The translations under genes and the position numbers were made by a program. Shown here one piece after another: positions 46,174 to 64,000 of a stretch of DNA of 64,000 nucleotides. The notes under the pieces are model-generated. The model ran no database searches. It was not told the DNA's origin and saw only the letters and a program-made list of their open reading frames with translations. This DNA comes from Candidatus Latescibacterota bacterium (GTDB lineage Bacteria; Latescibacterota; UBA2968; UBA8231). The stretch covers positions 3,520,001-3,584,000 of the forward strand of contig OZ253462.1 in assembly GCA_965261395.1 (NCBI GenBank), written 5' to 3'. Each line of letters begins with the position of its first letter. Position 1 is the first letter of the stretch.

Positions 46174-46989
46174 TCATTTGACGACGACCATTTTGCGCAC
46201 GTGGGCGACCGGGCCGGCCTGCAAGCGGTACAGATACACGCCGCTGGCGACGCGCTGGCCGCGATAGTCGCGTCCATCCCAATGGGCGGCGCTAGTGCTC
46301 GTCAAATACTGACCCGCTGCGCGATAGCCCAAGTCGATTTCTCGAACTAAGGCCCCCCGGACATCGTAGATACTCAAGTGCACATGGGCGAGGGCGTGGA
46401 GTTGATAGGGGATATAGGTGTCTGGGTTGAAGGGGTTAGGGAAGTTGGCTAGCAGCGCCGTCTGCGTCGGTAGCGGCGGCGAAGATTGAATTGCCGTTGG
46501 TGTAGAGGGGGTGATGTAGGGCGACATATCCCACAGTAGAATCGTGCCGTCCCGACTCCCACTGGCCAAGGCTTTTCCATCTGGCGAGAACGCCACGGAA
46601 AAGACCTGATTTGTATGGCCCTTGAGGGTTGTATGGAGTTGGCTGGTGCCCACATCCCACAACCGAATCGTGTTGCCCCCTCCTCCGCTGGCCAGCGTGG
46701 TTCCATCCGGCGAGAACGCTACGGTAGTGACCGCACCTATATGTCCCGTGAGCAAGGCGACTTCGTCAAAGGTGTATGCATCGTAGATCCAGATGCCGAT
46801 ATTACTAGCTACCGCGAGTCGCGTCCCGGCGGGCGAATACGCGATAGTCCCATTTATCGATCCTTTACCAAGACTGGCAATGGCACCTTCGGGCAAACTC
46901 AAGCGAGTATGGTCTTGGGCGCGGCTGTCCGGAACACACAGGACACAGACCAGCAACAGGAAGACGTTGAACAGCCGGATATTTTGCAT
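46174..46989 (-). CDS. Short WD40-repeat protein with T9SS type-A-like/FlgD-Ig CTD
   Basis: LPEGAIASLGKG, GH...VAFSPDG..LASG...LWD repeats, TALLANFPNPFNP, AAHWDGRD...ASGVYLY. Confidence 0.85.
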   Translation of the reverse strand: MQNIRLFNVFLLLVCVLCVPDSRAQDHTRLSLPEGAIASLGKGSINGTIAYSPAGTRLAVASNIGIWIYDAYTFDEVALLTGHIGAVTTVAFSPDGTTLASGGGGNTIRLWDVGTSQLHTTLKGHTNQVFSVAFSPDGKALASGSRDGTILLWDMSPYITPSTPTAIQSSPPLPTQTALLANFPNPFNPDTYIPYQLHALAHVHLSIYDVRGALVREIDLGYRAAGQYLTSTSAAHWDGRDYRGQRVASGVYLYRLQAGPVAHVRKMVVVK

Positions 46990-47151: not shown

Positions 47152-48054
47152 ATGCAACTAAGTCCCGAACAGGTCGCCCAATTCGCGGAGAACGGCTATC
47201 TGCTGCTGCGCGGCGCGCTGACCGACGCCGACCTCGACCCGATCATCGCCGAGTACGAAGAGTACATCGGTCGCCGCGCCGAGGAGTTGTTGGCGGCCGG
47301 CGACATCTCGGCCCTGTATGCGGACGAACCCTTCGACCGCCGCCTCGTCTCGATCTGCCGCGAAGACGACGAGATCTACAGAGAGCTCGACATCATGCGC
47401 TTGCGCGGGCGAGCCTCGTTTGAATTTTTGCGCAATGACCGCCTGCTCGATATGGTCGAAAGCTTGGTCGGGCCGGAGATTACTTGTAGCCCCATCCAGC
47501 ACACCCGCGCCAAACTGCCTGCGGGTGTGACGCCAAGCGGCAGCGACCCGCACGTGGCCCCTTGGCACCAAGACGCCGGCGTTACTTGGGAGGAGGCCGA
47601 CCCGCACTTCATCCTCACGGTGTGGCTGCCGCTGTGCGCGGCGACGCCCGAAAACGGCTGTTTGCAGATCTTGCCGCGAGCACACCGGAACGGGCTGGTG
47701 CAGCACCACATCAAGCAGGGCCTTGGCACGGTGATCATCGACGACGAGATGCCGCAGACTGAGTCGCTTACCTTGCCGATGGACAAAGGCGACGTGCTGC
47801 TGATGGACAAGCAGACGCCGCATCGCTCGACGCCCAATAACGCAGACATGGTGCGCTGGAGCATGGACTTGCGCTATCAGCAGACGGGGACGCCGACCGG
47901 TCGCCCCTTCCATCCCGACTTCGTGGCCCGCAGCCGGTCCAACCCCGCGTCTGAGCTGAGGGACTACGACGAATGGTGTCGGCGGTGGGTTGAGTCGCTA
48001 GAGGCAGTGCAAGGACAGGGGGTTAAGGCGCATCGGTGGGCGGTCGTCCAGTAG
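47152..48054 (+). CDS. Phytanoyl-CoA dioxygenase (PhyH) family Fe/2OG oxygenase
   Basis: PWHQD, ENGCL, PHRS..N, RWSMDLRY; AAGGAG RBS. Confidence 0.92.
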   Translation: MQLSPEQVAQFAENGYLLLRGALTDADLDPIIAEYEEYIGRRAEELLAAGDISALYADEPFDRRLVSICREDDEIYRELDIMRLRGRASFEFLRNDRLLDMVESLVGPEITCSPIQHTRAKLPAGVTPSGSDPHVAPWHQDAGVTWEEADPHFILTVWLPLCAATPENGCLQILPRAHRNGLVQHHIKQGLGTVIIDDEMPQTESLTLPMDKGDVLLMDKQTPHRSTPNNADMVRWSMDLRYQQTGTPTGRPFHPDFVARSRSNPASELRDYDEWCRRWVESLEAVQGQGVKAHRWAVVQ

Positions 48055-50695: not shown

Positions 50696-53047
50696 TTAGT
50701 AGGCCACGGCGATGGTGCGAAACGCGGTGTCGTCGCCGGCATCGGCACCCAGATTGACGCGCAGGACGTACAGGCCGGGGGCGGCACCCGCTCCATCGGC
50801 GTCGCGGCCATCCCAGGTGAAGAGGCGTTGCGACCCCTCGCTGCCTGGGGTAAGAGCCGCTACTTGGCGTCCGGCCAGATCGAAGATTTTCACCTGCGGC
50901 TCGCGGCCCTCGACTTTGAAGGCGACGAATCGCACCTCTAGCCGGTCGTTGATACCGTCGCCGTTGGGAGTTACGGTCGCAGAGGCCAGTTGCAGATCGC
51001 TGATGAGCTGGCTGTTGCTGGTCAGCTCGGGGAGCATGACGATGTTGGAGCGGCGCTGGGCCGCCTCGACCGCCTGCCACAGGCCCGGTGATTCGCTCGA
51101 TCCTAGGTCGAGGGCGAAGACGGTGGCGTTTTGCAGCAGGCGGGTAGTGAAGCTCACTTGCAACGAGTCGCCCGCGATCACCTGCGGCAGAGCGATGAGC
51201 AGCGAGTCGGCCTGCACGTCCAAGGCGGCCGGAACGACCTGTTCCGCGCCTACCATCACCGAGACGCTCGATAGGTCAACAGGTTCGGGGACGGTGAAAC
51301 GCATTAGGTCGAAACCGCTGTCGAAGCCATCGGTCTCGGGCCAGAGGGTATAGGTGAAGTTCGTGTCTTGGTTGGGAGTGGCCTCGCGGGGGGTGACGCT
51401 GCCGCGCGCGCCTTGAACTAGGGCTTCTTCAAACTCGACGGACACCGAATTGACGGTCGGGGTGACGGTGGGGTCCTCGGTGGAGAGGATCATCTCCAGC
51501 AAGATGAAGCGGCGCGGGCTGGCCGATTTGAAGGTCTCGCCCGAAAACTGGTAGGTATTGCTAAATGCGTTCCAGTCCTCGCCTGTGACCAAGGTCGAGT
51601 CAACAGGCCCTCTGATCACCTTGGGCAAGCTGTTCCACTTCTCCTCGGTGACCAGATCGCCCTTCTTGTCGTAAAAGGTGTACTCCGGGCTGAGCGCATT
51701 GCCCGAGCGAGAGCGCAATTGCAATCGGGTGCCCGGCGGCAGGTCGGCGTCCCAGTGCAGGGCCTTGATGACTTTGGGCCGCCCATCGCCGGCTACCTCG
51801 CCGAGGTTGATAAAGGCCGACTGCAACTCGACTTGGGCCGGATAACCCGGCGAGAATAGTTGTATCTCACCCCACTTGACGACGCCCCATCCCCTGCAGC
51901 TAACTCCGTGCCACAACAGGTAGCGGGCCTTGTGTGGCTCAAACAGGTAGCGCATGTAAAACAGGTTGTCGGCGTTGGGGGCCAGATGGGTGAAGACCTC
52001 TTCGTAATCGACGTTTTCGGGCACTTCGACGAGTGGGGCGGTGCCCGTGGCCGGGGTGCCGTCGGAAAAGAGGAGGGTGTGGCCCGGCCCAGCGCCAGAG
52101 ATGGTGAAACCCAAGGTGCCTTCGTCGGGCTGCATGGAATAGAGGAACATCTCGTCGATAAAGAATGTCGCGCCTAGATCCGCGCGGAACCACGTGCCGC
52201 CTTCGGCCCATCCCGACAGATCACCACGGCAGCCGGTGACGGTATTGTTGGTGTTGAGGTTGGCATCGAAGAGGTTGGGGGTGGAGCCGGTGCCATCGCC
52301 TTCGACGAAATTGCCGCGTAGGCTGGTGCCTATGGCAATGTTGTCGCCGATGCCGATGACCTCGATCTCGGCGAGGGCAGCGTTGGCGTTCTGCTCTTCG
52401 GAGATGATTTGGATGTACTGGATTAACTGGTAGTGGTTGCGTTCTGCGGGCGTTAAATCCAAATCGGGGTCAAACACTAGCGCGCTGTCGCGACCAGCGT
52501 AGCGCAACGGGATGACAATTTCTGATTCGGCGTTGGGGCGCGTGGTGCGGAAGGCCTGGCGGTAGAGGAAGAGGTCTTCGGTGGCCGAGATGCGCACGCC
52601 AGAGGTGGTGAAGACGCGGAATTGGCGGAACGGGCGCGCTCCCTCTTGGTCGGGGAATGTCAGGCGAATCTCGCGGGCTAGGGCCGCACGGCCTAGGTCG
52701 ATGGTGATAAACCAGTCCTCGCGGGCGTCGTCGGGGCTAGGTTGCCAATAGGTCGTTGGATCGCCGTCGATGGCCAGCGGGGCGTCGGCCGGGTTGGAGC
52801 CAGCTTGCCAGAGGCCGCCGGCAACGGCATCGCCTCTAGTGCGGGTCTTGTGGGTGAAGCGATGCGCGTCCTCGATGAGGTTGATGTCCTTGCGGAATTT
52901 GACGAGCGAGAGCTGGCCTTGTTCGCCGACCTGGACCAAGCCGAAGGGCTGTTGCCATTGGGCCCATTTCTCGGCGCTGTCGAAGGAGAGCATTTCAGCC
53001 GCTAGTGGGGCGGCTAGCACGAGGCAGACGATGATTACGCGTTGCAT
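50696..53047 (-). CDS. Type-A cassette protein A3 (secreted; discoidin-like domains + FlgD-Ig/CHU_C-like CTD)
   Basis: Start ATG 53047 behind GGAGG; signal peptide; IDGDPTTYW...IDLG; TPNGDGIND...WDGRD...IAVAY. Confidence 0.85.
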   Translation of the reverse strand: MQRVIIVCLVLAAPLAAEMLSFDSAEKWAQWQQPFGLVQVGEQGQLSLVKFRKDINLIEDAHRFTHKTRTRGDAVAGGLWQAGSNPADAPLAIDGDPTTYWQPSPDDAREDWFITIDLGRAALAREIRLTFPDQEGARPFRQFRVFTTSGVRISATEDLFLYRQAFRTTRPNAESEIVIPLRYAGRDSALVFDPDLDLTPAERNHYQLIQYIQIISEEQNANAALAEIEVIGIGDNIAIGTSLRGNFVEGDGTGSTPNLFDANLNTNNTVTGCRGDLSGWAEGGTWFRADLGATFFIDEMFLYSMQPDEGTLGFTISGAGPGHTLLFSDGTPATGTAPLVEVPENVDYEEVFTHLAPNADNLFYMRYLFEPHKARYLLWHGVSCRGWGVVKWGEIQLFSPGYPAQVELQSAFINLGEVAGDGRPKVIKALHWDADLPPGTRLQLRSRSGNALSPEYTFYDKKGDLVTEEKWNSLPKVIRGPVDSTLVTGEDWNAFSNTYQFSGETFKSASPRRFILLEMILSTEDPTVTPTVNSVSVEFEEALVQGARGSVTPREATPNQDTNFTYTLWPETDGFDSGFDLMRFTVPEPVDLSSVSVMVGAEQVVPAALDVQADSLLIALPQVIAGDSLQVSFTTRLLQNATVFALDLGSSESPGLWQAVEAAQRRSNIVMLPELTSNSQLISDLQLASATVTPNGDGINDRLEVRFVAFKVEGREPQVKIFDLAGRQVAALTPGSEGSQRLFTWDGRDADGAGAAPGLYVLRVNLGADAGDDTAFRTIAVAY

Positions 53048-53057
53048 CGAATCCTCC

Positions 53058-55091
53058 TTAGTAGGCGATACCCAAAGGGCGGTATTGAGGATCGGCAGCA
53101 AATTCCGAGCGCAGATTTAAGGCCGTCAGGTAGAGGCCGGGCGGTAGCCTCTGACCTGTTTCATCGCGGCCGTCCCAGCGCAGGCTCTGCGGGCCCGCGC
53201 TCTGCAAGCCGGCCTCGACGAGGGCCACGCGCCGCCCGTCGAGGCTATAGACCTCGAGGACGACGGGAACGGCTTCGGGCAGGCGGAACAGCGAATAGGC
53301 GATGTGCAGTTCGTCGTTGATGCCGTCGCCGTTGGGCGTAAAGACCGCAGAGGAAAAGGTCAGGTTCTGGATGAAGGCGGTTGTTTGCCCCGTGGTGCCG
53401 AGGACGCGCAGGCTGTTGGTCGAGAGGGCTGCGCCGACATCAGCACCGACTACAGGTTGCGGTAGAACGTCGCGTTCGCTGTCTAGGACCTCGCTCTGGA
53501 AGGTGGTTGCGAATTCAAATATCTCCGTGCCAAAGACAATGCGGATCGGCGGATTGTTGGCGCGGGTGATGCGCTCGGGCAGGTGGATGAGTAGGCCCTC
53601 GGGCTCTTGGGTGATCTCGGCAGGCGCAGTTTCCGTGCGGCTCTCGCCTAGTTGCAGGCTTTTGAGTTCGGTTTGGTGCCCCGTGCGAATGCGCAACAGG
53701 TCGAAGCCGGGTGCGTCAACCGTCTCGAAATCGGCTCGGAGATCATAGACGAATTCTATCGCTTCGCCGAGGGGGACTTGGGTGATCCCGCTGGCGGGCT
53801 GTGGATCGTCTAGGGGAGCCACTTCGCCGCGCACGTTGGCGGCCAACAGCGGGGCGGTTTCGAGCCACAGCGAGTCGAGGCGCACGAAATCGTCGAAGGA
53901 ATCGCTTTCCATGGTGATGAGGAACTGCAAATGGGTGCCGTTGCGCAGGTTGATCGGTTGACCCGATTCGACGAAGGGTGCGGACCAGAAAGTCCAGTTA
54001 TCTGAATCGTAGCCGATGGACGCGCGGATGCCGGGTTTGGGCTGGCGTTCGCTCAGGTCGGATGAGGAGCCGATGCGCACGAAGCGGGTGCGCAGTGCGT
54101 TTTCGTAGTGGTCGCGCGAGACTACGCGCTCCAGCCCGGTATCCATGTACTCGTGATAGACGGCCGGGTCGTCGTCTAGGCCAGTGCGCACCTCGACCTT
54201 GATCTGGGCCGCTGCATCGGGGGTTTCCACTGGGGTCCCATTGACCATGCGGAACTTTGTCGCCTGCCAGAACAGCCGTCCGAAATTCACGGGTTCGCCG
54301 AGGTCGGTTATCTTGGTCTTGTAGATGCTCCGCTGCGGTACTCCTTGGGCAAAGAGTTGGAACTCGCTGATTGAGCCGATGAGGGAGAAGGTGATTTTGC
54401 TGATCTTGGCTTGGGCGTCCTCGTCTAGTATCGAGAGCGTCCGGCGGTAGCGAAAGAAGCGCAGATACTGGCGGTTGAAGTCGAAGCGGATCTGCGGGGT
54501 AAAATTGTTGTCAACATCGGCGATGACGGTGGAGAGTGGGTTGGCATTGCCTTTGAGGACTGGAGGTTCGGGCGCGACTGAGGCGGTCACCTGAAAGGCG
54601 GGGACGAAGTCCGTTTCCAGGGGGGTCCCATCGGAACGAAAGCCCTCACTGGGAGGAATAAAGCCAAAGGTCACCGCTGGCACCGCCACGGCTAAATCCA
54701 TGGTGAAGGTTTCTTTTTCGACGAGGTCGGCCATTGGGGGATTATAGGTGAGAGGGTCGCCGTCAATGAGCCAGGAGCCGTTTTCTGATGGATCGGGCAC
54801 GCCGTTGTTCCACTTCCACATGCGCGGCGTCTCGCCGTCTAGGTAGTCGAAGATGCGGTCGCTGGGATCGCGCCAGAAGGCCCAGTTGTCGATATGGGAA
54901 AAAACCGTCTCGTCCGGCGTGAAGTACGTGGGCTGGATGGCACCGGGGGTGGTTGCGAAATCGACGAAGAGGCGGGTGGTGTCGTTTTCGCTCCAGGCTA
55001 GGCCATTGCCGCCTAGCTGCCAGTGGGCGATCTGGGCGGTGGCGCTTTGCGCTAAAATTAGGATGAACAAGACGATAGTGGCACGGCGCAT
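53058..55091 (-). CDS. Type-B cassette protein B2 (secreted; FlgD-Ig/CHU_C-like CTD)
   Basis: Signal peptide ending ATA; WQLGG; DLGEPVNFGRLFW; FTPNGDGIND; ends LGIAY. Confidence 0.88.
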   Translation of the reverse strand: MRRATIVLFILILAQSATAQIAHWQLGGNGLAWSENDTTRLFVDFATTPGAIQPTYFTPDETVFSHIDNWAFWRDPSDRIFDYLDGETPRMWKWNNGVPDPSENGSWLIDGDPLTYNPPMADLVEKETFTMDLAVAVPAVTFGFIPPSEGFRSDGTPLETDFVPAFQVTASVAPEPPVLKGNANPLSTVIADVDNNFTPQIRFDFNRQYLRFFRYRRTLSILDEDAQAKISKITFSLIGSISEFQLFAQGVPQRSIYKTKITDLGEPVNFGRLFWQATKFRMVNGTPVETPDAAAQIKVEVRTGLDDDPAVYHEYMDTGLERVVSRDHYENALRTRFVRIGSSSDLSERQPKPGIRASIGYDSDNWTFWSAPFVESGQPINLRNGTHLQFLITMESDSFDDFVRLDSLWLETAPLLAANVRGEVAPLDDPQPASGITQVPLGEAIEFVYDLRADFETVDAPGFDLLRIRTGHQTELKSLQLGESRTETAPAEITQEPEGLLIHLPERITRANNPPIRIVFGTEIFEFATTFQSEVLDSERDVLPQPVVGADVGAALSTNSLRVLGTTGQTTAFIQNLTFSSAVFTPNGDGINDELHIAYSLFRLPEAVPVVLEVYSLDGRRVALVEAGLQSAGPQSLRWDGRDETGQRLPPGLYLTALNLRSEFAADPQYRPLGIAY

Positions 55092-55176
55092 GAAGACCCT
55101 CCTTTGGCAAAGCGAAAATTAGAGACATGTGCCAACAATATAATGCGTGGTAAACAATTATCCTATCTGAGGAAGA
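55092..55176 (-). promoter_or_regulatory. AT-rich putative promoter region of cassette B2-A3 (duplicate of 57644-57728)
   Basis: AT-rich spacer upstream of a B gene, ending in an AAAGGAGG RBS; no clear -35/-10 pair identified. Confidence 0.4.
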
Positions 55177-55599
55177 TCAGTACGCCACGGCGATGGTGCG
55201 CAGTACTGTATCATCGCCAGCGTCAGCCCCTAGGTCGATGCGGCAGAGGTAGGTGCCGGGTGGCATGAGGTCGCCTTGGGCAGCGCTTCCGTTCCAGGTG
55301 AAAACGTGAGCCAAGCCGTCGATGGCCAGCGGGGCGTCGGCCTCGTTGGAGCCAGCTTGCCAGAGACCTCCGGCGACGGCATCGCCCTTGGTGCGGGTCT
55401 CGTGGACGAAGAAGTGTGCGTCTTCGACGAGGTTGATATCCTTGCGGAATTTGACGAGCGAGAGTTGGCCCTGTTCGCCGACCTAGACCAAGCCGAAGGG
55501 CTGTTGCCATTGGGCCCATTCCTCGCCGCTGTCAAAGGAGAGCATGTCAGCAGCGAGTGGGACGGCTAGCACGAGGCAGACGATGATTACGCGTTGCAT
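55177..55599 (-). pseudogene. Chimeric type-A pseudogene (A3-like N-terminus fused in frame to A1-like C-terminus; internal TAG)
   Basis: MQRVIIVCL...PFGLV*VGEQ...DAPLAIDG|LAHVFTWNGSAAQGDLMPPGTYLCRIDLGADAGDDTVLRTIAVAY; TAG at 55483-55485 where A3 has CAG. Confidence 0.9.
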
Positions 55600-55609
55600 C
55601 GAATCCTCC

Positions 55610-57643
55610 TTAGTAGGCGATACCCAAAGGGCGGTATTGAGGATCGGCAGCAAATTCCGAGCGCAGATTTAAGGCCGTCAGGTAGAGGCCGGGCGGTAGC
55701 CACTGACCTGTTTCATCGCGGCCGTCCCAGCGCAGGCTCTGCGGGCCTGCGCTCTGCAAGCCGGCCTCGACGAGGGCCACGCGCCGACCATCGAGGCTAT
55801 AGACCTCGAGGACGACGGGAACGGCTTCGGGCAGGCGGAACAGCGAATAGGCGATGTGCAGTTCGTCGTTGATGCCGTCGCCGTTGGGCGTAAAGACCGC
55901 AGAGGAAAAGGTCAGGTTCTGGATGAAGGCGGTTGTTTGCCCCGTGGTGCCAAGGACGCGCAGGCTGTTGGTCGAGAGGGCTGCGCCGACATCAGCACCG
56001 ACTACAGGTTGCGGTAGAACGTCGCGTTCGCTGTCTAGGACCTCGCTCTGGAAGGTGGTTGCGAATTCAAATATCTCCGTGCCAAAGACAATGCGGATCG
56101 GCGGATTGTTGGCGCGGGTGATGCGCTCGGGCAGGTGGATGAGTAGGCCCTCGGGCTCTTGGGTGATCTCGGCAGGCGCAGTTTCCGTGCGGCTCTCGCC
56201 TAGTTGCAGGCTTTTGAGTTCGGTTTGGTGCCCCGTGCGAATGCGCAACAGGTCGAAGCCGGGTGCGTCAACCGTCTCGAAATCGGCTTGGAGATCATAG
56301 ACGAATTCTATCGCTTCGCCGAGGGGGACTTGGGTGATCCCGCTGGCGGGCTGCGGATCGTCTAGGGGAGCCACTTCGCCGCGCACGTTGGCGGCCAACA
56401 GCGGGGCGGTTTCGAGCCACAGCGAATCGAGGCGCACGAAGTCGTCGAAGGAGTCGCTTTCCATGGTGATGAGGAACTGCAAATAGGTGCCGTTGCGCAG
56501 GCTGATAGGTTGGCCTGATTCGACGAAGGGTGCGGACCAGAAGGTCCAGTTGTCTGAATCGTAGCCGATGGACGCGCGGACGCCCGGCTTGGGCTGGCGT
56601 TCGCTCAGGTCGGATGCGGCGGTGATACGCACGAAGCGAGTGCGCAGGGCGTTTTCATAGTGGTCGCGCGAAACTACGCGCTCTAGGCCGGTGTCCATGT
56701 ACTCGTGATAGACGGCCGGGTCGTCGTCTAGGCCGGTGCGCACCTCGATCTTAACTTGGGCCGCCGCGTCGGGAGTTTCCACTGGAGTCCCATTGACCAT
56801 GCGGAATTTTGTCGCCTGCCAGAACAGCCGTCCGAAATTTACGGGTTCGCCGAGGTCGGTTATCTTGGTCTTGTAAATGGCCTGCTGAGGCACACCTTGG
56901 GAGAAGAGCTGAAACTCGCTGATCGAGCCGATGAGAGCAAAGGCGACGTTGCCGCTCTTGGCTTGGGCGTCCTCATCCAGTAGCGAGAGCGTCCGGCGGT
57001 AGCGGAAGAAGCGCAGGTACTGGCGGTTGAAGTCGATGCGGACCTGCGGGGTAAAATTGTTGTCAACATCGGCGATGACGGTGGAGAGTGGATTGACATT
57101 GCCTTCAAGCACCGGGGGTTCGGGTGCGACCGAGGCGGTCACCTGAAAGGCGGGAACGAAGTCCGTTTCCAGTGGGGTGCCGTCGGAACGAAAGCCCTCG
57201 CTGGGCGGAATAAAGCCAAAGGCCACCGCTGGCACCGACACGGCCAAATCCATGGTGAAGGTTTCCTTTTCAATGCGGTCGGCTTTGGGTGGGTTGTAGG
57301 TGGTAGGGTCGCCATCGATGAGCCAGGAGCCGTTTTCCGAAGGGTCGGGTATGCCGTGGTTCCACTTCCACATGCGCGGGGTCTCGCCGTCGAGGTAGTC
57401 GAAAATCCGGTCGCTGGGGTCGCGCCAGAAGGCCCAGTTGTCGATATGGGAAAAAACCGTCTCGTCCGGCGTGAAGTACGTAGGCTGGATGGCACCGGGG
57501 GTGGTTGCGAAATCGACGAAGAGGCGGGTGGTGTCGTTTTCGCTCCAGGCTAGGCCACTGCCGCCTAGCTGCCAGTGGGCGATCTGGGCGGTGGCGCTTT
57601 GCGCTAAACTTAGGATGAACAAGACGATAGTGGCGCGGCGCAT
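55610..57643 (-). CDS. Type-B cassette protein B1 (close paralog of B2)
   Basis: Same length (677 aa) and collinear with B2. Confidence 0.88.
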   Translation of the reverse strand: MRRATIVLFILSLAQSATAQIAHWQLGGSGLAWSENDTTRLFVDFATTPGAIQPTYFTPDETVFSHIDNWAFWRDPSDRIFDYLDGETPRMWKWNHGIPDPSENGSWLIDGDPTTYNPPKADRIEKETFTMDLAVSVPAVAFGFIPPSEGFRSDGTPLETDFVPAFQVTASVAPEPPVLEGNVNPLSTVIADVDNNFTPQVRIDFNRQYLRFFRYRRTLSLLDEDAQAKSGNVAFALIGSISEFQLFSQGVPQQAIYKTKITDLGEPVNFGRLFWQATKFRMVNGTPVETPDAAAQVKIEVRTGLDDDPAVYHEYMDTGLERVVSRDHYENALRTRFVRITAASDLSERQPKPGVRASIGYDSDNWTFWSAPFVESGQPISLRNGTYLQFLITMESDSFDDFVRLDSLWLETAPLLAANVRGEVAPLDDPQPASGITQVPLGEAIEFVYDLQADFETVDAPGFDLLRIRTGHQTELKSLQLGESRTETAPAEITQEPEGLLIHLPERITRANNPPIRIVFGTEIFEFATTFQSEVLDSERDVLPQPVVGADVGAALSTNSLRVLGTTGQTTAFIQNLTFSSAVFTPNGDGINDELHIAYSLFRLPEAVPVVLEVYSLDGRRVALVEAGLQSAGPQSLRWDGRDETGQWLPPGLYLTALNLRSEFAADPQYRPLGIAY

Positions 57644-57728
57644 GAAGGCTTTCCTTTGGCAAAGCGAAAATTAGAGACATGTGCCAATAATATAATATTT
57701 GATAGACAATTATCCTATCTGCGGAAAA
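57644..57728 (-). promoter_or_regulatory. AT-rich putative promoter region upstream of B1
   Basis: Homologous to 55092-55176, with differences concentrated in the central AT tract. Confidence 0.4.
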
Positions 57729-60065
57729 TCAGTACGCCACAGCGATGGCGTGCAGTGCTGTATCGTCGCCGGCGTCAGCTCCTAGGTCAATGCGGCAGAG
57801 GTAGGTGCCGGGTGGCATGAGGTCGCCTTGGGCAGCGCTTCCGTTCCAGGTGAAAACATAGGCTACGCCGTCGATGGCTGGGGCCGCTAGTTCGGCGACC
57901 GGCCTTCCGGCAAGGTCGAAAATGCGCACTTGGGGCGTGCGTTGCTCGACCTTGAAGGCGACGAAGCGGATAACTACTTCGTCGTTGATGCCGTCGCCGT
58001 TGGGAGTGAGTACTGGCGAGGAAATCGAGAGGTCGTCAATGAGCTGGGTAGTGCCGGTCAGAGCGGGGAGCATGACGATATTGGCGCGGCGCGTCAGCGG
58101 CTCGACCGATTGCCACAGGTCTGGATGGCCGCTCGAACCTAAGTCGAGGCCGAAGAGCGTGGCGTTGTGTAGTACGCGGGTGGTGAAGCTGACTTGGACG
58201 GAGTCGGTGGTGATGGCACGGGGCAGGTCGATTTGCAGGGCGTCGGCGCGGATGTCTATGGAAGATGGCTCGATGTGGGTGCCGCCCGCGCGGACTTCGA
58301 CATCGGACGCTTCAGCGGGGAGGGCAAAGCGCAGCAAGTCGAAGCCCGCGTGGGCGGCATCGGCCGCGGACAACAGGGTGTAGGTGAAGCGAGTGTCCTC
58401 GTTGGGCAGGGCGACTCTGGGGGCGATTTGGCCCTGGGCGCCCTGTAACAGCGCGTCCTTGTACTCAAGCGACAGCGCGTCAATTGCGGGTGCCGCCTGT
58501 GGATCGTCGGTCGAGAGGATCATCTCCAACTGCACGAAGCGACGCGGGCTTTGCGACTTGAATGCCTCGCCGGAAAAGGTGTACGCCTTGCTCCACGCAT
58601 CCCAATCCTCGCTGACCACGACGGTGGTGTCGATCCTTCCCCGCAGCACTTTGGGCAGGCTGAGCCATTTCTCTTCAGTGACCGGCTCGCCGATCTTGTC
58701 GTGGAAGGCATAGACCTCGCCCTGGGTGTTGCCCGAGCGCGAGTGCACTTGCAGGCGAGTGCCGGGCGGAATGTCGGCGTCCCAAGAGAGGTGGCTGATG
58801 ACTTTGGCACGCCCATCGCCAGCGGCCGTGCCGAGATCGATAAAGTCCGAATGCATGACGACCTCGGCGGGGTGGCCCGGCGAAAAGAGCATCAGCTCGG
58901 TCCAGCGCGAACCCCATTCCTGGGGGGTGTGGGCGTGCCAGAACAGGTAGCGGACCCTGCGCGGTTGGAACAGATAGCGCAGATAGCGCATGGAGCCGGG
59001 GTCGGGTTGGTCGATGAGGGTAGCAAAGTCAAAGGATTCGGGGATGGGGAGCTGGGAGCTGATGACGCGGGTGCCGTCCGAGTGGAGAAAGTTAAAGCCT
59101 CTCGGAGCGCTGGCCACGCTCCCGACCGTGCCCTCGCGCGGCCTGAGCGCGTAGAGGAAAAGCTCGTCGAGCCAGAATACGGCCCCTAAGTCGATGAAGA
59201 ACCAGGTGCCCTGATCTTCCCAACTGCGGACGCGGCCCTCAAAGCCTACGGGCAGGATGGAGCTGGCGGTGTTCATGTCGCCGTCGAGGATATTTTCGTT
59301 AGAGCGGGCGGTAAGCCCGTTGATGATGCCGCCGCGCTGGTCGTTGCCCAAGCTGACGTTGTCGCCGACGGCGATGACTTCGACCTCGGCTAAGGCACCT
59401 TCAGGCTCTAGGTCTTCGACTGTGAAGTTGATGTACTGGATGAGGCGGTACTGGTTGAACTCTTCCAGATCGACGTTGAGACTAGGGTCGAGGACCTGGG
59501 CGCTGTCCTGGAGGTCGAAGGCGAGGGGGATTGAGATGGTGGTATCCCTGTTAGGTTGAGTCGTCAGATAAACCGGCCGAAAAATAAAGAGGTCGCCGAG
59601 GGCGTCGGAAGTGATGCCGGTGGCGGTGAAGACGGTGAACTGGCGGAAGGGGCGGGCGCCTTCTTGGTCGGGAAAGTGCAGGCGGATCTCTTTGGCCAGC
59701 ACGGCGCGACCGAGGTCAATCTGCACGAACCAGTCGCCGAGCACGTCGTCGGCCGAGGCCTGCCAGAAGGTCGCGCGGTTGCCGTCCATGACCCGTCTGG
59801 CTGCGGCTGGGTTGCTGCCGGCTTCCCAGATCCCGCCCGGCACGTTGGCACCGCGCGAGCGGGTGTGGTGGGTAAAGTCGGGCGCGTCGGCTACGGCGTT
59901 GATATCCTTGCGGAATTTGACCAGCCGCAACTGACCGCGGTCGCCAAACTCGATCAGGCCATAGGGCTTCTTCCAGGTTGACCAGCTAGCGGCGCTGTCG
60001 AAGCGGAATTCTGCGGCGGCGAGCGCGGTTGCCGAACAGAGGACCCAAAGCAGTAGAGGACGCAT
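57729..60065 (-). CDS. Type-A cassette protein A1
   Basis: Signal peptide; collinear with A3 (KFRKDIN, FPDQEGARPFRQF, GTWF..DLGA, SRSGN, LTPNGDGIND, IAVAY). Confidence 0.88.
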   Translation of the reverse strand: MRPLLLWVLCSATALAAAEFRFDSAASWSTWKKPYGLIEFGDRGQLRLVKFRKDINAVADAPDFTHHTRSRGANVPGGIWEAGSNPAAARRVMDGNRATFWQASADDVLGDWFVQIDLGRAVLAKEIRLHFPDQEGARPFRQFTVFTATGITSDALGDLFIFRPVYLTTQPNRDTTISIPLAFDLQDSAQVLDPSLNVDLEEFNQYRLIQYINFTVEDLEPEGALAEVEVIAVGDNVSLGNDQRGGIINGLTARSNENILDGDMNTASSILPVGFEGRVRSWEDQGTWFFIDLGAVFWLDELFLYALRPREGTVGSVASAPRGFNFLHSDGTRVISSQLPIPESFDFATLIDQPDPGSMRYLRYLFQPRRVRYLFWHAHTPQEWGSRWTELMLFSPGHPAEVVMHSDFIDLGTAAGDGRAKVISHLSWDADIPPGTRLQVHSRSGNTQGEVYAFHDKIGEPVTEEKWLSLPKVLRGRIDTTVVVSEDWDAWSKAYTFSGEAFKSQSPRRFVQLEMILSTDDPQAAPAIDALSLEYKDALLQGAQGQIAPRVALPNEDTRFTYTLLSAADAAHAGFDLLRFALPAEASDVEVRAGGTHIEPSSIDIRADALQIDLPRAITTDSVQVSFTTRVLHNATLFGLDLGSSGHPDLWQSVEPLTRRANIVMLPALTGTTQLIDDLSISSPVLTPNGDGINDEVVIRFVAFKVEQRTPQVRIFDLAGRPVAELAAPAIDGVAYVFTWNGSAAQGDLMPPGTYLCRIDLGADAGDDTALHAIAVAY

Positions 60066-60071
60066 TGGCCG

Positions 60072-62081
60072 TTAATAGGCAAGGCCCAAGGCCAATAGCT
60101 GTTTGGCTTGGACGAACTGGGTTTGCAGGGCGATGGAGAGTAGGTAGAGGCCCGGCGGGAGGAGCTGGCCGGTCTCGTCGCGGCCGTCCCAGGTGATCGC
60201 GCGCGGGCCGGAGTCTTGCAGCCCTTGGTCGAGGCGGGCGATGCGGCGACCGTCCAAGGCGTACACTTCCAGTGCCACGGGCACGGGACCGGGGAGGTGG
60301 AAGAGCGAATAACGCATCTGGAGCTGGTCGTGGATGCCGTCGCCATTGGGGGTCAGCACCGGGGTGGACAAAGCGAGCGCTTGGATGAAATCGAGTGTCT
60401 CGTCGCCCGCGCCCAGCACCCGCAGGCTGTTGGTGGAGACCGCCTCGCTGGCGTCGCCGGCTAGGATTGGTTGGGGGAGCGATTCGCCGTCGGCGACAAA
60501 GATCTCGCCGGCAAAGGTGGAGGCGAATTCAAAGACTTCGGCGGCGAAGACCACGCGGATCGGCGCGTTGTTGGTGCCGGTGACGCGCTGGGGCAATTGG
60601 ATCACCAAACCGTCGTCTTCCTCTACTGCGACTGGATTGACCGAGACGAGTGGGGTGCCCATTTCGAGGCGGCGAAAGGCGGTGCGATTGCCGGTGTGGA
60701 TCCTAAGCGCGTCGAAGCCGGGAGCGGTGCTACCGTCGAATACGGCCCGCACCTGATAGACGAATTCGGTCTGTTGGCCCAAGGCGACTTCGGTAAAGCC
60801 GCGCTTGGGCTGCGGGTCGTCGCGTCGAGCCACTTCGGCGAATACCTCAGCGGCCAATAGCGGCGCGGTCTCGATCCACAGCGAGTCAATCCGCATCCAA
60901 GCGTCGAAGTCGCGGCTTTCTAAGGAGAGTTCCACTTGGAGATGCGATCCGCTCCTGAGCCGGATTGGCTGGCCCGATTCGGTAAAGGGCACCGACCAGA
61001 AGGACCAGTTGGCAGAATCGTAGCCGATGGAGGCGCGGATCCCGGGCCGTGGGTCGCGGTTGAGTTGGGCGGTGAGTGTCTCGTATTGCTCGCGCGAGAC
61101 CTCCTTCTCTCGGCCGATGTTGGTGTATTCGTGGTAGGTCGCCGGGCTGTCATCGCGGCCGACGCGGACTTTGGCCTTGAGCCAGACTGGGGCGTCGGGA
61201 TCTGCGACGACCACGCCATCGACCAAGCGCAGCGGCGTGCCTGCCCAGTGCAGGCGGCCAAAATTCACCACTCGGCCCAGATCGACGACTTGGCTGAGGT
61301 ACACTACGCGCTGCGGGATGCCTTGGCCGAAGATCTCGAATCCCCCGATTGAGCCTTTGAGCGCGATGGCTTGGTTGCCTTGGCCTCCGCAGTCGCGGCA
61401 GATGTTGAGCGCTTCCTCGTCGGCCAGCGACAATTGGCGGCGCCAGCGGAAGAAGCGGACGTACTGGCGGGGGATTTCTATCTGAACGGAGGGTTCGAAG
61501 TTGGCACCGACATTGGCGATGGTTTTTTCAAAGAGATCGTTGCCACCCCACTGAACGGCCGGTTCGGTGTCCGTGCCGATCGAGACATCGAAAGCCGGGA
61601 CCGCGTCGAAGGGCAGCGGTGTGCCGTCAGAGCGGAAGCCCTGCGAGGGAGTGAAGAAGCCGAAGCGCACGGCGGGGATCGGCACGGCGGTGTCGAAGGA
61701 GAAGAAAGTGGCTCCGACCGATTCGGACCGGGGGGCGTTGTAAGTCGTGGAATCGCGATCAACTAGGAAAACGCCGCTTTGGGTCGGATCGCCGCCGGCA
61801 CCGCCCCAGCGGTTCCAGAAGCGGGGTTTCTGGCCATCGACATAGCCGAGGTTGTACAAGGGGGGTTCGCGCCAGAACTCCCAGTTTTCCAGCAAGTGAA
61901 TGACGTTTTGATCTGGCTGCAAGTAGAGCGGCTGGATCGCACCGTCGACAAAATCGACAAGGACGTGGAGGGAGTCGCGCTGATCCCACGCCATGCCACT
62001 GCCGCCCAGTTGCCACTTTGCTACTTGAGCGTGGCTGGGTGCGACGGCGAGGATTAGCATCAAAGGCCAAGCACTGCGCAT
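60072..62081 (-). CDS. Type-B cassette protein B0
   Basis: Start moved to ATG 62081 (MRSAWPLML..., signal peptide ending SHA); collinear with B1/B2; ends LGLAY. Confidence 0.85.
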   Translation of the reverse strand: MRSAWPLMLILAVAPSHAQVAKWQLGGSGMAWDQRDSLHVLVDFVDGAIQPLYLQPDQNVIHLLENWEFWREPPLYNLGYVDGQKPRFWNRWGGAGGDPTQSGVFLVDRDSTTYNAPRSESVGATFFSFDTAVPIPAVRFGFFTPSQGFRSDGTPLPFDAVPAFDVSIGTDTEPAVQWGGNDLFEKTIANVGANFEPSVQIEIPRQYVRFFRWRRQLSLADEEALNICRDCGGQGNQAIALKGSIGGFEIFGQGIPQRVVYLSQVVDLGRVVNFGRLHWAGTPLRLVDGVVVADPDAPVWLKAKVRVGRDDSPATYHEYTNIGREKEVSREQYETLTAQLNRDPRPGIRASIGYDSANWSFWSVPFTESGQPIRLRSGSHLQVELSLESRDFDAWMRIDSLWIETAPLLAAEVFAEVARRDDPQPKRGFTEVALGQQTEFVYQVRAVFDGSTAPGFDALRIHTGNRTAFRRLEMGTPLVSVNPVAVEEDDGLVIQLPQRVTGTNNAPIRVVFAAEVFEFASTFAGEIFVADGESLPQPILAGDASEAVSTNSLRVLGAGDETLDFIQALALSTPVLTPNGDGIHDQLQMRYSLFHLPGPVPVALEVYALDGRRIARLDQGLQDSGPRAITWDGRDETGQLLPPGLYLLSIALQTQFVQAKQLLALGLAY

Positions 62082-62179
62082 CGGGCACCGCATCTCCGCT
62101 GAGGTAACATGCTGCTGGGAAGATAATGCAAAAAGAGCCATGCGCGGAATTAAATAATCACCGCTATGGCTAGGAACTC

Positions 62180-64000
62180 CTAATAGGCGACGGCGATGGT
62201 GCGCAGCATCGTATCGTCACCGGCGTCGGCACCGAGATCGACGCGCAGGACGTAGATGCCGGGGGCCGCGTTCGCTCCGTTGGCGTCGCGGCCATCCCAA
62301 GTGAAGAGGCGGTGCAATCCCTCGGTACTTGGGGCGAGGACGGCTACTTGGTGCCCGGCGAGGTCGAAGACTTCCACTTGCGGCTCGCGGCCTTCGGCTT
62401 TAAGGACGACGAACCGCACCTCTAGCCGGTCGTTGATGCCGTCGCCGTTGGGCGTGAGTGTCGGCGAGGAGACGAAGAAGTCGCTGATGAGCTGGCTGCT
62501 ACTGGTTAGTTCGGGCAGCATGACGATATTGGCACGGCGTGCGGCCGGTTCGACCGACTGCCAACGGCCCGGATGCGTGCTGGAGCCTAAGTCCAACGCG
62601 AAGAGGGTGGCGTTGCGCACCAAGTGGGTGGTAAAGTGGACGCGGACCGAATCGTCTCGGATCGGATCGGGTAAGGCGATGAGCAGGGAGTCTCCGCGCA
62701 GGGAGGTCGATGCCGGCGAGACGGTTTCTGTGCCCTTCTCCACGCTCACGCTGTGCAGATTGAGCGGACCCGGCAGGTCGAAGCGCATCAGGTCGAAGCC
62801 GACGTCATCAGGGCTGGCGCTGGGCAGTAGGGTATAAGTGAAGGAAGTCTCCTCATTGGGGAGGGCACTGCGCGGCTCGACGCGGCCACGGGCACTCTGG
62901 AGCAGCGCGTCGTCGAATTCGATCGACAGCGCGTTGACTGCGGGCGCGACTTCGGGGCGGTCGGTAGCGAGAATCAGCTCCAGTTGCGCGAAGCGACGCG
63001 GACTTTGCGACTTAAAGGTTTCGCCGGAAAATTGGTACACATTGCTCCAAGCGTCCCAGTCCTCGCCGACGACCAGCAAGGTATCGATAGGACCGCGCAG
63101 CACCTTGGGCGAGCTATTCCATTTTTCTTCGGTGATTGCTTCGCCGATCTTATTGTGAAACGTATAGACCGGTGCCAGCGCGTTACCCGAACGAGAGCGC
63201 AGTTGCATCCTAGCCCCTATGGGCAGATCGGCGTCCCAGTGCAGGGCCTTGATGACTTTGGGCCGCCCGTCGCCGGTTTCCTCACCGAGGTCAATAAAGC
63301 CGGAGCGCAGCGAGACTTGGGCGGGATAGCCCGGCGAGAACAGCATAAATTCGCCCCATTTGGATTCGAGCCAATCGCGGTCGGTCAGGCCGTGCCAGAA
63401 CATATAGCGCATCCTGCGCGGCCTGAATTTGTAGCGTATGCGGTAGAGGCCATCCGCCTTGGGGTTGACGTGCGTGAGCAGTTCGCCGTAGTCGAGCGGC
63501 GCAGGTACGGGTAGGGAAGTGCCCACGCTGAGCGAGCCGTCCGAGACTAGGATGCTGTGACCTGGGCCAGCCGAGCCGCGGTGATAGCCCGCAGTGCCCT
63601 CAAAAGGTTGGAGCACGTAGAGGAACAGTTCATCGACGAAGAACACAGCGCCTAGATCGACGTAAAACCAAGTGCCTGCTTTCTCCCAGCCTTGGTCGCC
63701 GCGGCCGGAGGTGATGAGATTGGTGGTGTTGATATCGGCGTCGAAGAGGTTGCCCGGGACGGCGGCTACCGTGCCGTTGAGGAAGGTGCCGCGCCCGGCG
63801 GTGCCGATGCTGATATTGTCGCCCACAGTGAGCACTTCGACTTCGCCCAGCGCCGCATCTAGGCTTTGTTCTTCGACGATGATACTGATGTACTGAATCA
63901 CTTGGTAGTGGTTTTCAAAGGTGCGATCAATGGCCATAGCTGGATCGACCGTCAGGAGGGTGTCGGCGGCCGGATACTCGAGGGGAATGGTCAGGGAAGT
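62180..64000 (-). CDS. Type-A cassette protein A0 (5'-partial, continues beyond the right edge)
   Basis: Frame is open to the window end (TSLTIPLEYPAADTLL...); collinear with A1/A3; ends IAVAY. Confidence 0.88.
   Translation of the reverse strand, partial: TSLTIPLEYPAADTLLTVDPAMAIDRTFENHYQVIQYISIIVEEQSLDAALGEVEVLTVGDNISIGTAGRGTFLNGTVAAVPGNLFDADINTTNLITSGRGDQGWEKAGTWFYVDLGAVFFVDELFLYVLQPFEGTAGYHRGSAGPGHSILVSDGSLSVGTSLPVPAPLDYGELLTHVNPKADGLYRIRYKFRPRRMRYMFWHGLTDRDWLESKWGEFMLFSPGYPAQVSLRSGFIDLGEETGDGRPKVIKALHWDADLPIGARMQLRSRSGNALAPVYTFHNKIGEAITEEKWNSSPKVLRGPIDTLLVVGEDWDAWSNVYQFSGETFKSQSPRRFAQLELILATDRPEVAPAVNALSIEFDDALLQSARGRVEPRSALPNEETSFTYTLLPSASPDDVGFDLMRFDLPGPLNLHSVSVEKGTETVSPASTSLRGDSLLIALPDPIRDDSVRVHFTTHLVRNATLFALDLGSSTHPGRWQSVEPAARRANIVMLPELTSSSQLISDFFVSSPTLTPNGDGINDRLEVRFVVLKAEGREPQVEVFDLAGHQVAVLAPSTEGLHRLFTWDGRDANGANAAPGIYVLRVDLGADAGDDTMLRTIAVAY

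Follow-up and report, generated by a model that had tools for sequence, protein, structure and literature searches.

Divergent between paralogs, conserved among orthologs: loops of discoidin/CBM32-type domains in paired putative surface proteins of a Latescibacterota bacterium

Described relatives and domain architecture of the A and B proteins

Discoidin (F5/8 type C) domains bind their ligands through 'spikes' that precede the W-x-x-V-D-L strand, follow the T-Q-G turn and precede the last strand; we equate these places with loops i, ii and iii of the A proteins described below. Tandem discoidin domains of neuropilin (b1b2) and of factors V and VIII (C1C2) are eukaryotic and bind membranes or peptides. 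In CBM32 modules, apical loops, variable in length and sequence, form the sugar sites and differ between paralogous modules (PMC5291390).

The window analyzed (the whole stretch of 64,000 nucleotides of a Latescibacterota chromosome) carries on its minus strand an array of two-gene cassettes, B followed by A, in the order A1, B0, A2, B2, a dead A remnant, B1 and A3 (Table 1). The order A2-B-A3 recurs at L021, L022, L023, L025, L028 and L029, six of the 11 loci compared from related species. The dead remnant joins, in frame, an A3-like 5' part of about 113 codons, interrupted by one internal TAG, to a 3' tail that is A2-like and shares about 91% identity with the end of A2. The likely start of A3 is at 53047, because its orthologs begin at M19.

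Table 1. Features of the cassette array, in window coordinates
Feature	Position	Strand	Remarks
A3 gene	50696..53101	(-)	801 aa from TTG
A3 layout			signal peptide; CBM32-like D1 ~71-250; discoidin-like D2 251-420; beta-sandwich module 421-700; FlgD_ig/CHU_C tail 701-801
A3 domain D2	51842..52351	(-)	res 251-420; carries loops i, ii, iii
A3 loop i	52199..52243	(-)	res 287-301; includes C291 and RGD
A3 loop ii	52082..52114	(-)	res 330-340
A3 loop iii	51872..51907	(-)	res 399-410; includes C402
B1 gene	53058..55091	(-)	677 aa; derived 'type II' B copy
B1 patch KISKITFSL	54381..54407	(-)	res 229-237
B1 patch PMADLV	54720..54737	(-)	res 119-124
B1 patch IGSSS	54060..54074	(-)	res 340-344
Dead A remnant	55179..55653	(-)	
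B2 gene	55610..57643	(-)	677 aa; 'type I', the majority state
B2 segment KSGNVAFAL	56933..56959	(-)	
A2 gene	57729..60065	(-)	778 aa
A2 loops i/ii/iii	59211-59261, 59097-59126, 58902-58934	(-)	
B0 gene	60072..62141	(-)	689 aa
B0 loop NICRDCGGQGNQAIAL	61359-61406	(-)	
A1 gene	62180..64000	(-)	cut by window end; continues to about window 64504 in the genome
A1 loops i/ii/iii	63677-63718, 63560-63592, 63356-63391	(-)	

The first domain of the A3 AlphaFold model (D1, residues 71-250; model pLDDT 86.7) has the beta-sandwich fold of the multiple CBM32 modules of Clostridium perfringens GH31, GH84, GH89, NanJ and ZmpB, with Z of about 15 (13.4-15.3 among CBM32 modules, rmsd 2.1-2.4 Å over 126-132 residues). 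The D1+D2 pair, arranged in tandem like CBM32-1/-2 of ZmpB, superposes through residues 72-424 on tandem discoidin domains at Z 11.5-14.4 (14.4 with 267 residues aligned for neuropilin b1b2, 11.5-11.7 for factor V/VIII C1C2), at a sequence identity of 10-12% to these eukaryotic proteins; Foldseek E-values of the discoidin/CBM32-fold matches range from 5e-9 to 1e-6. As judged by superposition of its predicted model on solved members, A3 is of the discoidin/CBM32 beta-sandwich fold, in agreement with the initial annotation, which had placed the loops within a domain of this type. Unlike CBM32 modules recognized by Pfam, D1 stays below the gathering scores of PF00754 and PF22633 (26.2 vs 27.8 and 23.0 vs 28.2 in A3; likewise 25.0 and 19.1 in A2), and the isolated D2 and B N-domains matched 0 Pfam families even at E up to 10.

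Unlike CBM32 enzymes, A and B lack a catalytic domain, their modules being mounted on a family-specific beta-sandwich stalk (about 290 aa, common to A and B) followed by the FlgD-Ig/CHU_C tail; B1 residues 238-677 are homologous to A 407-801. Apparently, A and B are non-catalytic proteins, probably displayed at the surface or secreted. The B1 model has a mean pLDDT of 57, residues 1-254 being below 50 (about 30); because it failed there, the discoidin nature of the B N-domain rests on a short hhalign match to A D1 (40 columns, probability 66%) and on language-model neighbours scoring 0.87-0.90. The hhalign probability was 0.3% for the B N-domain against A D2 and 2.3% for A D1 against A D2. At its N-terminus A has two recognition domains of discoidin/CBM32 type, and B probably has one.

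Loops of the A proteins between paralogs and among orthologs

The initial annotation had described CDR-like hypervariable loops on a conserved scaffold, ascribed to diversifying selection on a binding face, for glycan specificity or phage escape. Each peptide quoted in it occurs once in the named ORF, within 1-3 nt of the stated place, and the three A paralogs do differ in the loops, where 7/38 columns are invariant vs 50/132 in the rest of D2 (Fisher p=0.03) and 262/567 in the rest of residues 197-801 (p=0.0007). The notion of three loops on a conserved scaffold fared worse, as D2 segments 351-363 (1/13 invariant) and 367-381 (1/15) exceed the loops in divergence. D2 is altogether the most paralog-divergent region, with 78/170 positions (46%) fixed but different between the A2 and A3 ortholog groups (29%, 19% and 17% in the other A regions), and inside it the fixed differences are not significantly enriched in the loops (20/38 vs 58/132 in the remainder, p=0.36). 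From the strand order in the model, loops i-iii should lie at one end of the D2 barrel, where they may form one face, the divergent loop 351-363 being expected at the other end.

Among 123 homologs roughly one loop position in two hardly varies (W298 in 122, G302 in 122, G331 in 122, G340 in 121, W405 in 119, K409 in 120, W410 in 120), and a single loop-i sequence is common to 54 of them, which is not the behaviour of a hypervariable, CDR-like segment. The cysteines of loops i and iii, proposed earlier as a private pair of A3, occur both together in 23 homologs, are both missing from 100 and never occur singly; it is thus the A3 clade, and not A3 alone, to which the pair is private. Its co-conservation fits an adjacency of loops i and iii, between which the two cysteines would form a disulfide.

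Loop i of A1 and A3 contains RGD, kept in 7/7 close A1 homologs. This motif, the recurrence of B-like-to-A-like cassettes in the genome and the peptide binding that titles of PDB entries suggest for discoidin domains such as neuropilin b1 would agree with loops serving as protein-protein interfaces, through which an A would pair with its cognate B or bind a host protein, instead of as glycan sites. We regard this as quite unlikely, given that sugar-binding CBM32 modules come out closest in single-domain structural comparison and that RGD is not maintained in A3 orthologs, in which the D position is occupied by D, A or T. Complex prediction for A 411-801 with B 238-677 gave a score of 0.00 in a run without controls and bears neither way on pairing.

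In the related-species comparison (median dS about 0.4; gene-wide pN/pS 0.16-0.21), the loop sequences scarcely differ across 9 A3 and 8 A2 orthologs, each paralog retaining its own, and the B0 loop is identical in 9/10 orthologs. Loci L031-L035 and L038 were rejected as B0 orthologs (about 51% identity), same-genus loci making up the B0 set in their place. The pN/pS values of loops i, ii and iii are 0.41, 0.06 and 0.15 in A3 (gene 0.16, 9 orthologs) and 0.09, 0.25 and 0.12 in A2 (gene 0.21), and D2 has the lowest value, 0.10, among the four A3 regions compared. A SLAC-like count found no codon under significant positive selection, the lowest p being 0.095 in sets of 8-14 sequences with little single-site power. 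Repeatedly replaced sites are scattered and seldom fall into the segments singled out initially (A3 2/15, A2 1/16, B 0/19).

These data bear directly on the suggestion that ongoing diversifying selection, driven by an arms race against phages or a host, continues to alter the loops. The probable surface exposure of the proteins would agree with it, as would loop i of A3, which has the third-highest pN among 39 model loops (pN 0.10, pN/pS 0.32-0.41). Against it, each paralog's loops hardly change across 8-10 species (7-10 species besides the one studied), and loops ii and iii show pN/pS of only 0.06-0.25. The two outcomes named beforehand as speaking against such selection, scattered variable sites and loop ratios no higher than in other surface loops, are largely what the A proteins display, because loop pN/pS is low, no codon is significant and the replaced sites are dispersed. 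We see no ongoing diversification in the loops, and as an explanation for A it is already largely refuted; for the locus as a whole it is highly improbable. The A loops are not antibody-like hypervariable segments, since each duplicate keeps its loop almost unchanged across related species.

Patches, types and probable gene conversion in the B copies

The clustering of B1/B2 differences noticed initially was confirmed, amino-acid differences forming 12 neighbouring pairs vs 4.7 expected (p=0.00025), and synonymous differences showed no clustering (p=0.12). The replacements are derived in B1 at 29 of 34 positions, and residues 229-237 have an N:S codon ratio of 6:1, the remainder of codons 1-406 one of 26:69 (p=0.004). 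Patch 229-237 immediately precedes the strand shared with A, that is, it occupies the same position as A loop iii; PMADLV comes after a DGDPxTY motif that aligns to A D1, and IGSSS belongs to a part of the shared module that is modelled with low confidence.

The pN/pS values of the patches are 0.75 (229-237), 0.40 (119-124) and 1.09 (340-344), the gene as a whole having 0.18. Two of the three patches are raised, a point in favour of continuing selection, but not clearly above 1, and they mark a one-off divergence of the B1 type. Among 86 close B homologs the patches fall into three discrete types, 76 sequences being of one type (KSGNVA-type in 76/86, PKADRI in 74/86), which again argues against an ongoing arms race. 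The most variable segments lie elsewhere (36 variants in 480-492, 26 in 562-572, 24 in 190-204). The B1 type is rare and common to one other species, that of locus L041, in which the patches are identical.

Trees of the two gene halves differ: the 5' part groups by type (B1+L041, support 1.0) and the 3' part by genome (B1+B2, 0.915; the two L041 copies, 1.0), the 3' 271 codons of B2 being nearly identical to those of B1. The B 3' halves are homogenized within genomes, the tandem copies probably being kept alike by gene conversion. Contigs of four public runs at 85% likeness yielded short pieces with B1-like and B2-like copies mixed, and for window positions 54294-54521 one run contained two forms, with 0 and 27 differences. 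The latter look like the two paralog types and not like a variant cloud, with the reservation that assembled contigs drop rare variants and are coarse for population diversity.

Clustered amino-acid changes in a binding domain bear a superficial likeness to programmed hypermutation by a diversity-generating retroelement. This origin has a negligible likelihood and is already refuted as far as the tests reach: the B1/B2 substitutions are ordinary transitions without adenine specificity (A>G 23, C>T 24, T>C 21, G>A 15), the sole RVT_1 match in the genome lies at 2.31 Mb, more than 1.2 Mb from the window (3.52-3.58 Mb), the repeats found in the region are paralog copies only, with no non-paralog (template) repeat among them, and the patches are fixed across species.

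Neutral drift, with the loops being the least constrained surface parts and their differences having no effect on specificity, has more in its favour: the B patches have pN/pS near 1, A3 loop i and B residues 334-367 have reduced model confidence, and other D2 loops diverge equally or more. We nevertheless hold it to be unlikely, as drift predicts changes among orthologs too, yet D2 is where A changes least among orthologs, and loop sequences, Cys pair and type II B patches alike persist from species to species.

Secretion, family size and proposed origin of the loops

A1, A2 and A3 carry a C-terminal TPNGDGIND-type domain resembling that of type IX secretion (T9SS) cargo of type B (CHU_C), with PF13585 scores of 28.5, 30.3 and 27.6 bits among the three (cut-off 27). 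The B proteins remain below this cut-off (25.0, 23.7 and 17.6 bits), and TIGR04131 is well under its own (19.3 and 18.6 bits vs 35); PF13860 (FlgD_ig) matches the tails at 29-34.8 bits (cut-off 27), fitting them as well as or better than PF13585. The same genome encodes PorU (618.4 bits, cut-off 420) and SprA (473.7 bits, or 594.9 counting the neighbouring same-frame stretch, cut-off 200). Judging from these profile matches, the tail most likely directs type IX secretion, the export of A and B being a prediction.

In the genome, ORFs with the C-module number 135, those with the tail 189 and those with D2 24. At least 30 clusters bring together two or more C-module genes that are neighbours on the same strand, many of the clusters running from B-like to A-like. 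A and B are thus part of a very large family of paralogs that pair as two-gene cassettes, B preceding A; by a rough estimate the family takes up roughly 4% of the chromosome. At the level of titles and abstracts, we found no description of it in the literature on Latescibacteria/Latescibacterota.

Taken together, these results make it probable that the loops are anciently diverged, now conserved recognition loops at the D2 binding end of cassette-paired discoidin/CBM32-type surface proteins. The segments noticed initially would be, in A, the binding-end loops of the second discoidin-like domain and, in B, the corresponding sites. We propose that the A loops differ because the paralogs split long ago and specialized, probably for different glycan ligands, after which purifying selection would have held the loops of each paralog across the genus. 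B1 would have arisen by a further B duplication, its replacements piling up in a few clustered patches, possibly under relaxed or episodic positive selection, and then freezing, while gene conversion may have maintained the likeness of the tandem 3' halves.

A bolder reading takes the family for a germline repertoire of two-chain surface receptors: heteromeric cassettes with distinct discoidin-type 'variable' N-domains and a gene-converted 'constant' C-terminal stalk, new specificities coming from unequal crossover and a short burst of clustered replacements as in B1. We consider it rather unlikely; if true, the 135 members would be a major means of recognizing host or algal glycans.

On the reading preferred here, that of anciently diverged and conserved recognition loops, the differing loops follow the known pattern of CBM32/discoidin paralogs and are of modest interest; alone they teach little new, because paralogs with differing apical loops are familiar. 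It is the context that deserves attention: an uncharacterized family with about 135 members per genome in an uncultured phylum, recurring cassettes of B followed by A, and recognition loops stable among orthologs. The B1/B2 pair provides a clean case of tandem duplication with patchy divergence and gene conversion of the other gene half. If ligands are found, the family could explain how these bacteria recognize polysaccharides or host surfaces.

Gene array and extent of the family

The window lies within a single 6.55-Mb contig, and the A and B chains are encoded in it by a minus-strand array (see the table). Because another B gene precedes A1 directly upstream, beyond the window, the unit of the array is a B->A cassette. 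Identity among the A paralogs is 53-63%, while B1 and B2 share 95% and B0 and B1 52%.

Features of the A/B array and its surroundings (window coordinates)
Feature	Positions	Strand	Remark
A1	62180 to beyond 64000	minus	ORF, first in reading order
A1 loop i	63677-63718	minus	with RGD tripeptide
B0	60072-62141	minus	ORF, second
B0 loop	61359-61406	minus	with C-x-x-C pair (CRDC)
A2	57729-60065	minus	ORF, third
B2	55610-57643	minus	ORF, fourth
B2 codons 407-677	55610-56422	minus	271 codons
Dead A remnant	about 55179-55653	minus	between B2 and B1
B1	53058-55091	minus	ORF, after dead A remnant
B1 codons 407-677	53058-53870	minus	271 codons
A3	50696-53101	minus	ORF, last
A3 start region, TTG to Met	53047-53101	minus	longest A3 ORF
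A3 loop i	52199-52243	minus	with RGD tripeptide
PhyH-family dioxygenase gene	47152-48054	plus	just downstream of A3
FlgD_ig/CHU_C-tailed protein	46174-46989	minus	
FlgD_ig/CHU_C-tailed protein	34290-36194	minus	
FlgD_ig/CHU_C-tailed protein	32000-34147	minus	

The longest A3 ORF begins with a TTG codon, at which it overlaps the end of B1; since the Met 18 codons downstream is the start in 8/8 A3 orthologs, the real start is probably at position 53047. In the dead A remnant, the 5' part resembles A3 (89-91% identity, with one internal TAG) and the 3' tail resembles the end of A2 (about 91% identity); the two are joined without a break in the reading frame at an 'AIDG' motif common to both parents. 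This composition suggests a scar left when A3 and A2 recombined by unequal crossover, an event that would have duplicated B.

A search with B1 returned 79 loci, 11 of which (L021-L029, L037 and L041; 84-95% identity) were used, the other 68 being distant paralogs. The order A2-type, B, A3-type was found in 6/11 loci (L021, L022, L023, L025, L028, L029). In one related species (L026, 4848-8029), two overlapping ORFs of 583 and 531 aa stand in place of an intact A3-type gene downstream of B, which could reflect a frameshift or an assembly error.

When profiles of the A alignment were run over the 2,949 ORFs of at least 350 aa in the genome, 135 ORFs displayed the C-module (the beta-sandwich stalk common to A and B), 189 the FlgD-Ig/CHU_C tail, 57 the first discoidin-like domain (D1) and 24 the second (D2). 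The family is thus very large; 30 clusters of at least two adjacent same-strand C-module genes were listed, many ordered B-like then A-like, and one run comprises seven genes (genome positions 5173632-5189354). The literature, as far as searched, contains no description of the family or of its cassette organization. The window encodes three further proteins with a FlgD_ig or CHU_C tail, of which one also matches F5/8 type C and one carries WD40 repeats. The PhyH gene adjoins genes of a 2OG-Fe(II) oxygenase, a DHDPS-family protein and an amidohydrolase.

Domain architecture and placement of the loops

All A and B proteins match FlgD_ig and CHU_C at the C-terminus (Pfam), and PorU (618 bits) and SprA (595 bits) were detected in the genome, both above curated cut-offs; type IX secretion is therefore plausible as the predicted export route. 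Pfam gave an F5/8 type C match just below threshold near residues 106-165 of the A proteins and did not recognize D2. In the AlphaFold model of A3, obtained from an 80-sequence alignment (mean pLDDT 86.7), D1 (residues 71-250) superposes on CBM32 modules (Z 15, rmsd 2.1-2.4 A over 126-132 residues), and the longer stretch 72-424 superposes on tandem discoidin units, namely b1b2 of neuropilin (Z 14.4, 267 residues) and C1C2 of factors V/VIII (Z 11.5-11.7). This tandem superposition places the three loops of the initial annotation, i (287-301), ii (330-340) and iii (399-410), in the modeled discoidin-like D2 (251-420), which is followed by a beta-sandwich (421-700). Judging from strand order and the alternation of beta-sandwich ends, loops i, ii and iii and segment 374-381 should lie at one end of the barrel and segment 351-363 at the other. 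Loops i-iii match in position the spikes through which the C2 domains of factors V/VIII bind ligand. In CBM32, the sugar sites are described as being built by apex loops of variable length, which are not the same in the different modules of a given enzyme (PMC5291390).

The two Cys residues of loops i and iii, C291 and C402, had been proposed as a disulfide private to A3. Both are invariant in 9/9 A3 orthologs and are retained while adjacent residues change, and among 123 homologs both occur in 23, neither in 100 and only one in none. Such retention is consistent with a disulfide joining loops i and iii, which would make these loops adjacent; the pair is shared, however, by homologs of the A3 clade, and, as the 23 homologs form a single clade, it may reflect a single evolutionary event. 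An RGD tripeptide is present in loop i of both A3 and A1. It is retained in 7/7 close A1 homologs, the D position in A3 orthologs being D, A or T, and it may be due to chance.

In the B chains, residues 238-677 align with A 407-801 (profile comparison, probability 100%). The N-terminal part (residues 1-254) of the B1 model has pLDDT about 30, i.e., its fold is not reliably predicted; a short hhalign match of B 105-144 to D1 of A (107-147, probability 66%) and language-model neighbors carrying F5/8 type C domains (scores 0.87-0.90, a lead only) suggest that this domain is likewise discoidin-like.

Divergence and gene conversion in the B chains

Between B1 and B2 there are 117 nt differences, which affect 109 codons; the change is a replacement in 34 of them and synonymous in 75, and 102 of the affected codons fall within codons 1-406. 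The earlier observation that the pair differs in clusters holds well, as the replacements are clustered (p=0.00025) and the synonymous changes are not (p=0.12); 29/34 replacements are derived in B1. At residues 229-237, three discrete types exist among 86 close B homologs: KSGNVA (76/86), KISK (2/86, B1 and one other) and a type with a 3-aa insertion (at least 7/86). All three B1 patches (229-237, 119-124 and 340-344) are unchanged in L041, where a copy of sequence type III lies directly upstream of the B1-type copy. In 13 sequences, pN/pS of these patches was 0.75, 0.40 and 1.09, respectively, against 0.18 for the gene, i.e., raised towards 1 rather than above it. The B1 patches represent a one-off divergence after duplication. 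DGR-driven variation was considered and rejected, since the B1/B2 substitution spectrum is ordinary and the only reverse-transcriptase match in the genome is >1.2 Mb away. The B0 loop is identical in 9/10 same-genus orthologs (overall identity 82-91%), and both Cys of its CRDC motif occur in 10/10.

Trees of codons 1-406 grouped the sequences by type (B1 with L041, support 1.0; the upstream L041 copy with L021, 0.993), whereas those of codons 407-677 grouped them by genome (B1 with B2, 0.915; the two L041 copies, 1.0). Together with the mere 7 differing codons between B1 and B2 in these 271 codons, this grouping, repeated here and in L041, indicates gene conversion of the 3' half, confined to the shared C-module.

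Variability and selection in the A loops

The initial annotation regarded loops i-iii as CDR-like hypervariable loops on a conserved scaffold, evolving under diversifying selection. All peptides quoted for the A and B chains are real, each occurring once within 1-3 nt of its assigned position. Among the three A paralogs, 7/38 loop columns are invariant, compared with 50/132 in the rest of D2 (p=0.03) and 262/567 in the rest of the protein (p=0.0007), so the loops are indeed conserved below average; nevertheless, D2 segments 351-363 (1/13) and 367-381 (1/15) are even less conserved. Hypervariability is not borne out: near-invariant Gly/Trp framework residues occupy roughly half of the positions in the loops across 123 homologs (e.g., W298 122/123, G331 122/123, W405 119/123, W410 120/123), and the loops are nearly identical inside both the A3 and the A2 ortholog groups. 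Mean entropy was 1.5 for residues 291-300 (loop i), 1.05 for 331-340 (ii) and 1.1 for 401-410 (iii), with 1.09 for the protein and 2.1-2.4 in segments 611-630 and 751-760.

The A3 group comprised nine intact downstream A genes (L026, L027 and L041 were dropped) and the A2 group eight upstream ones (L024, L026, L037 and L041 dropped), the dropped loci having no intact full-length ORF inside the locus. With a median dS of about 0.4, synonymous sites were unsaturated. Pairwise pN/pS of loops i, ii and iii was 0.41, 0.06 and 0.15 in A3 orthologs (gene 0.16) and 0.09, 0.25 and 0.12 in A2 orthologs (gene 0.21). By pN among the 39 loops of the A3 model, loop i ranked 3rd, and the parts with loops ii and iii 19th and 11th. 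D2 showed the lowest pN/pS of four A3 regions (0.10; others 0.13, 0.20 and 0.23) and was the richest in positions fixed differently in A2 and A3 (78/170; others 62/216, 52/280 and 17/101), the loops within it showing no significant enrichment (20/38 vs 58/132 elsewhere, p=0.36). A parsimony, SLAC-like count gave omega of 0.15, 0.22 and 0.17 for three ortholog groups and no significant site in them (lowest p 0.095). Sites with at least three replacements and no synonymous change were scattered, 2/15 (A3), 1/16 (A2) and 0/19 (B) falling inside the segments originally singled out.

These low ratios, absence of significant sites and scatter speak against diversifying selection on the A loops. The pattern is that of paralogs whose functions diverged long ago and which are now under purifying selection. 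The observation of variable loops was thus real and over-read: they are paralog-specific, ortholog-conserved recognition loops of discoidin/CBM32-type domains, a known pattern.
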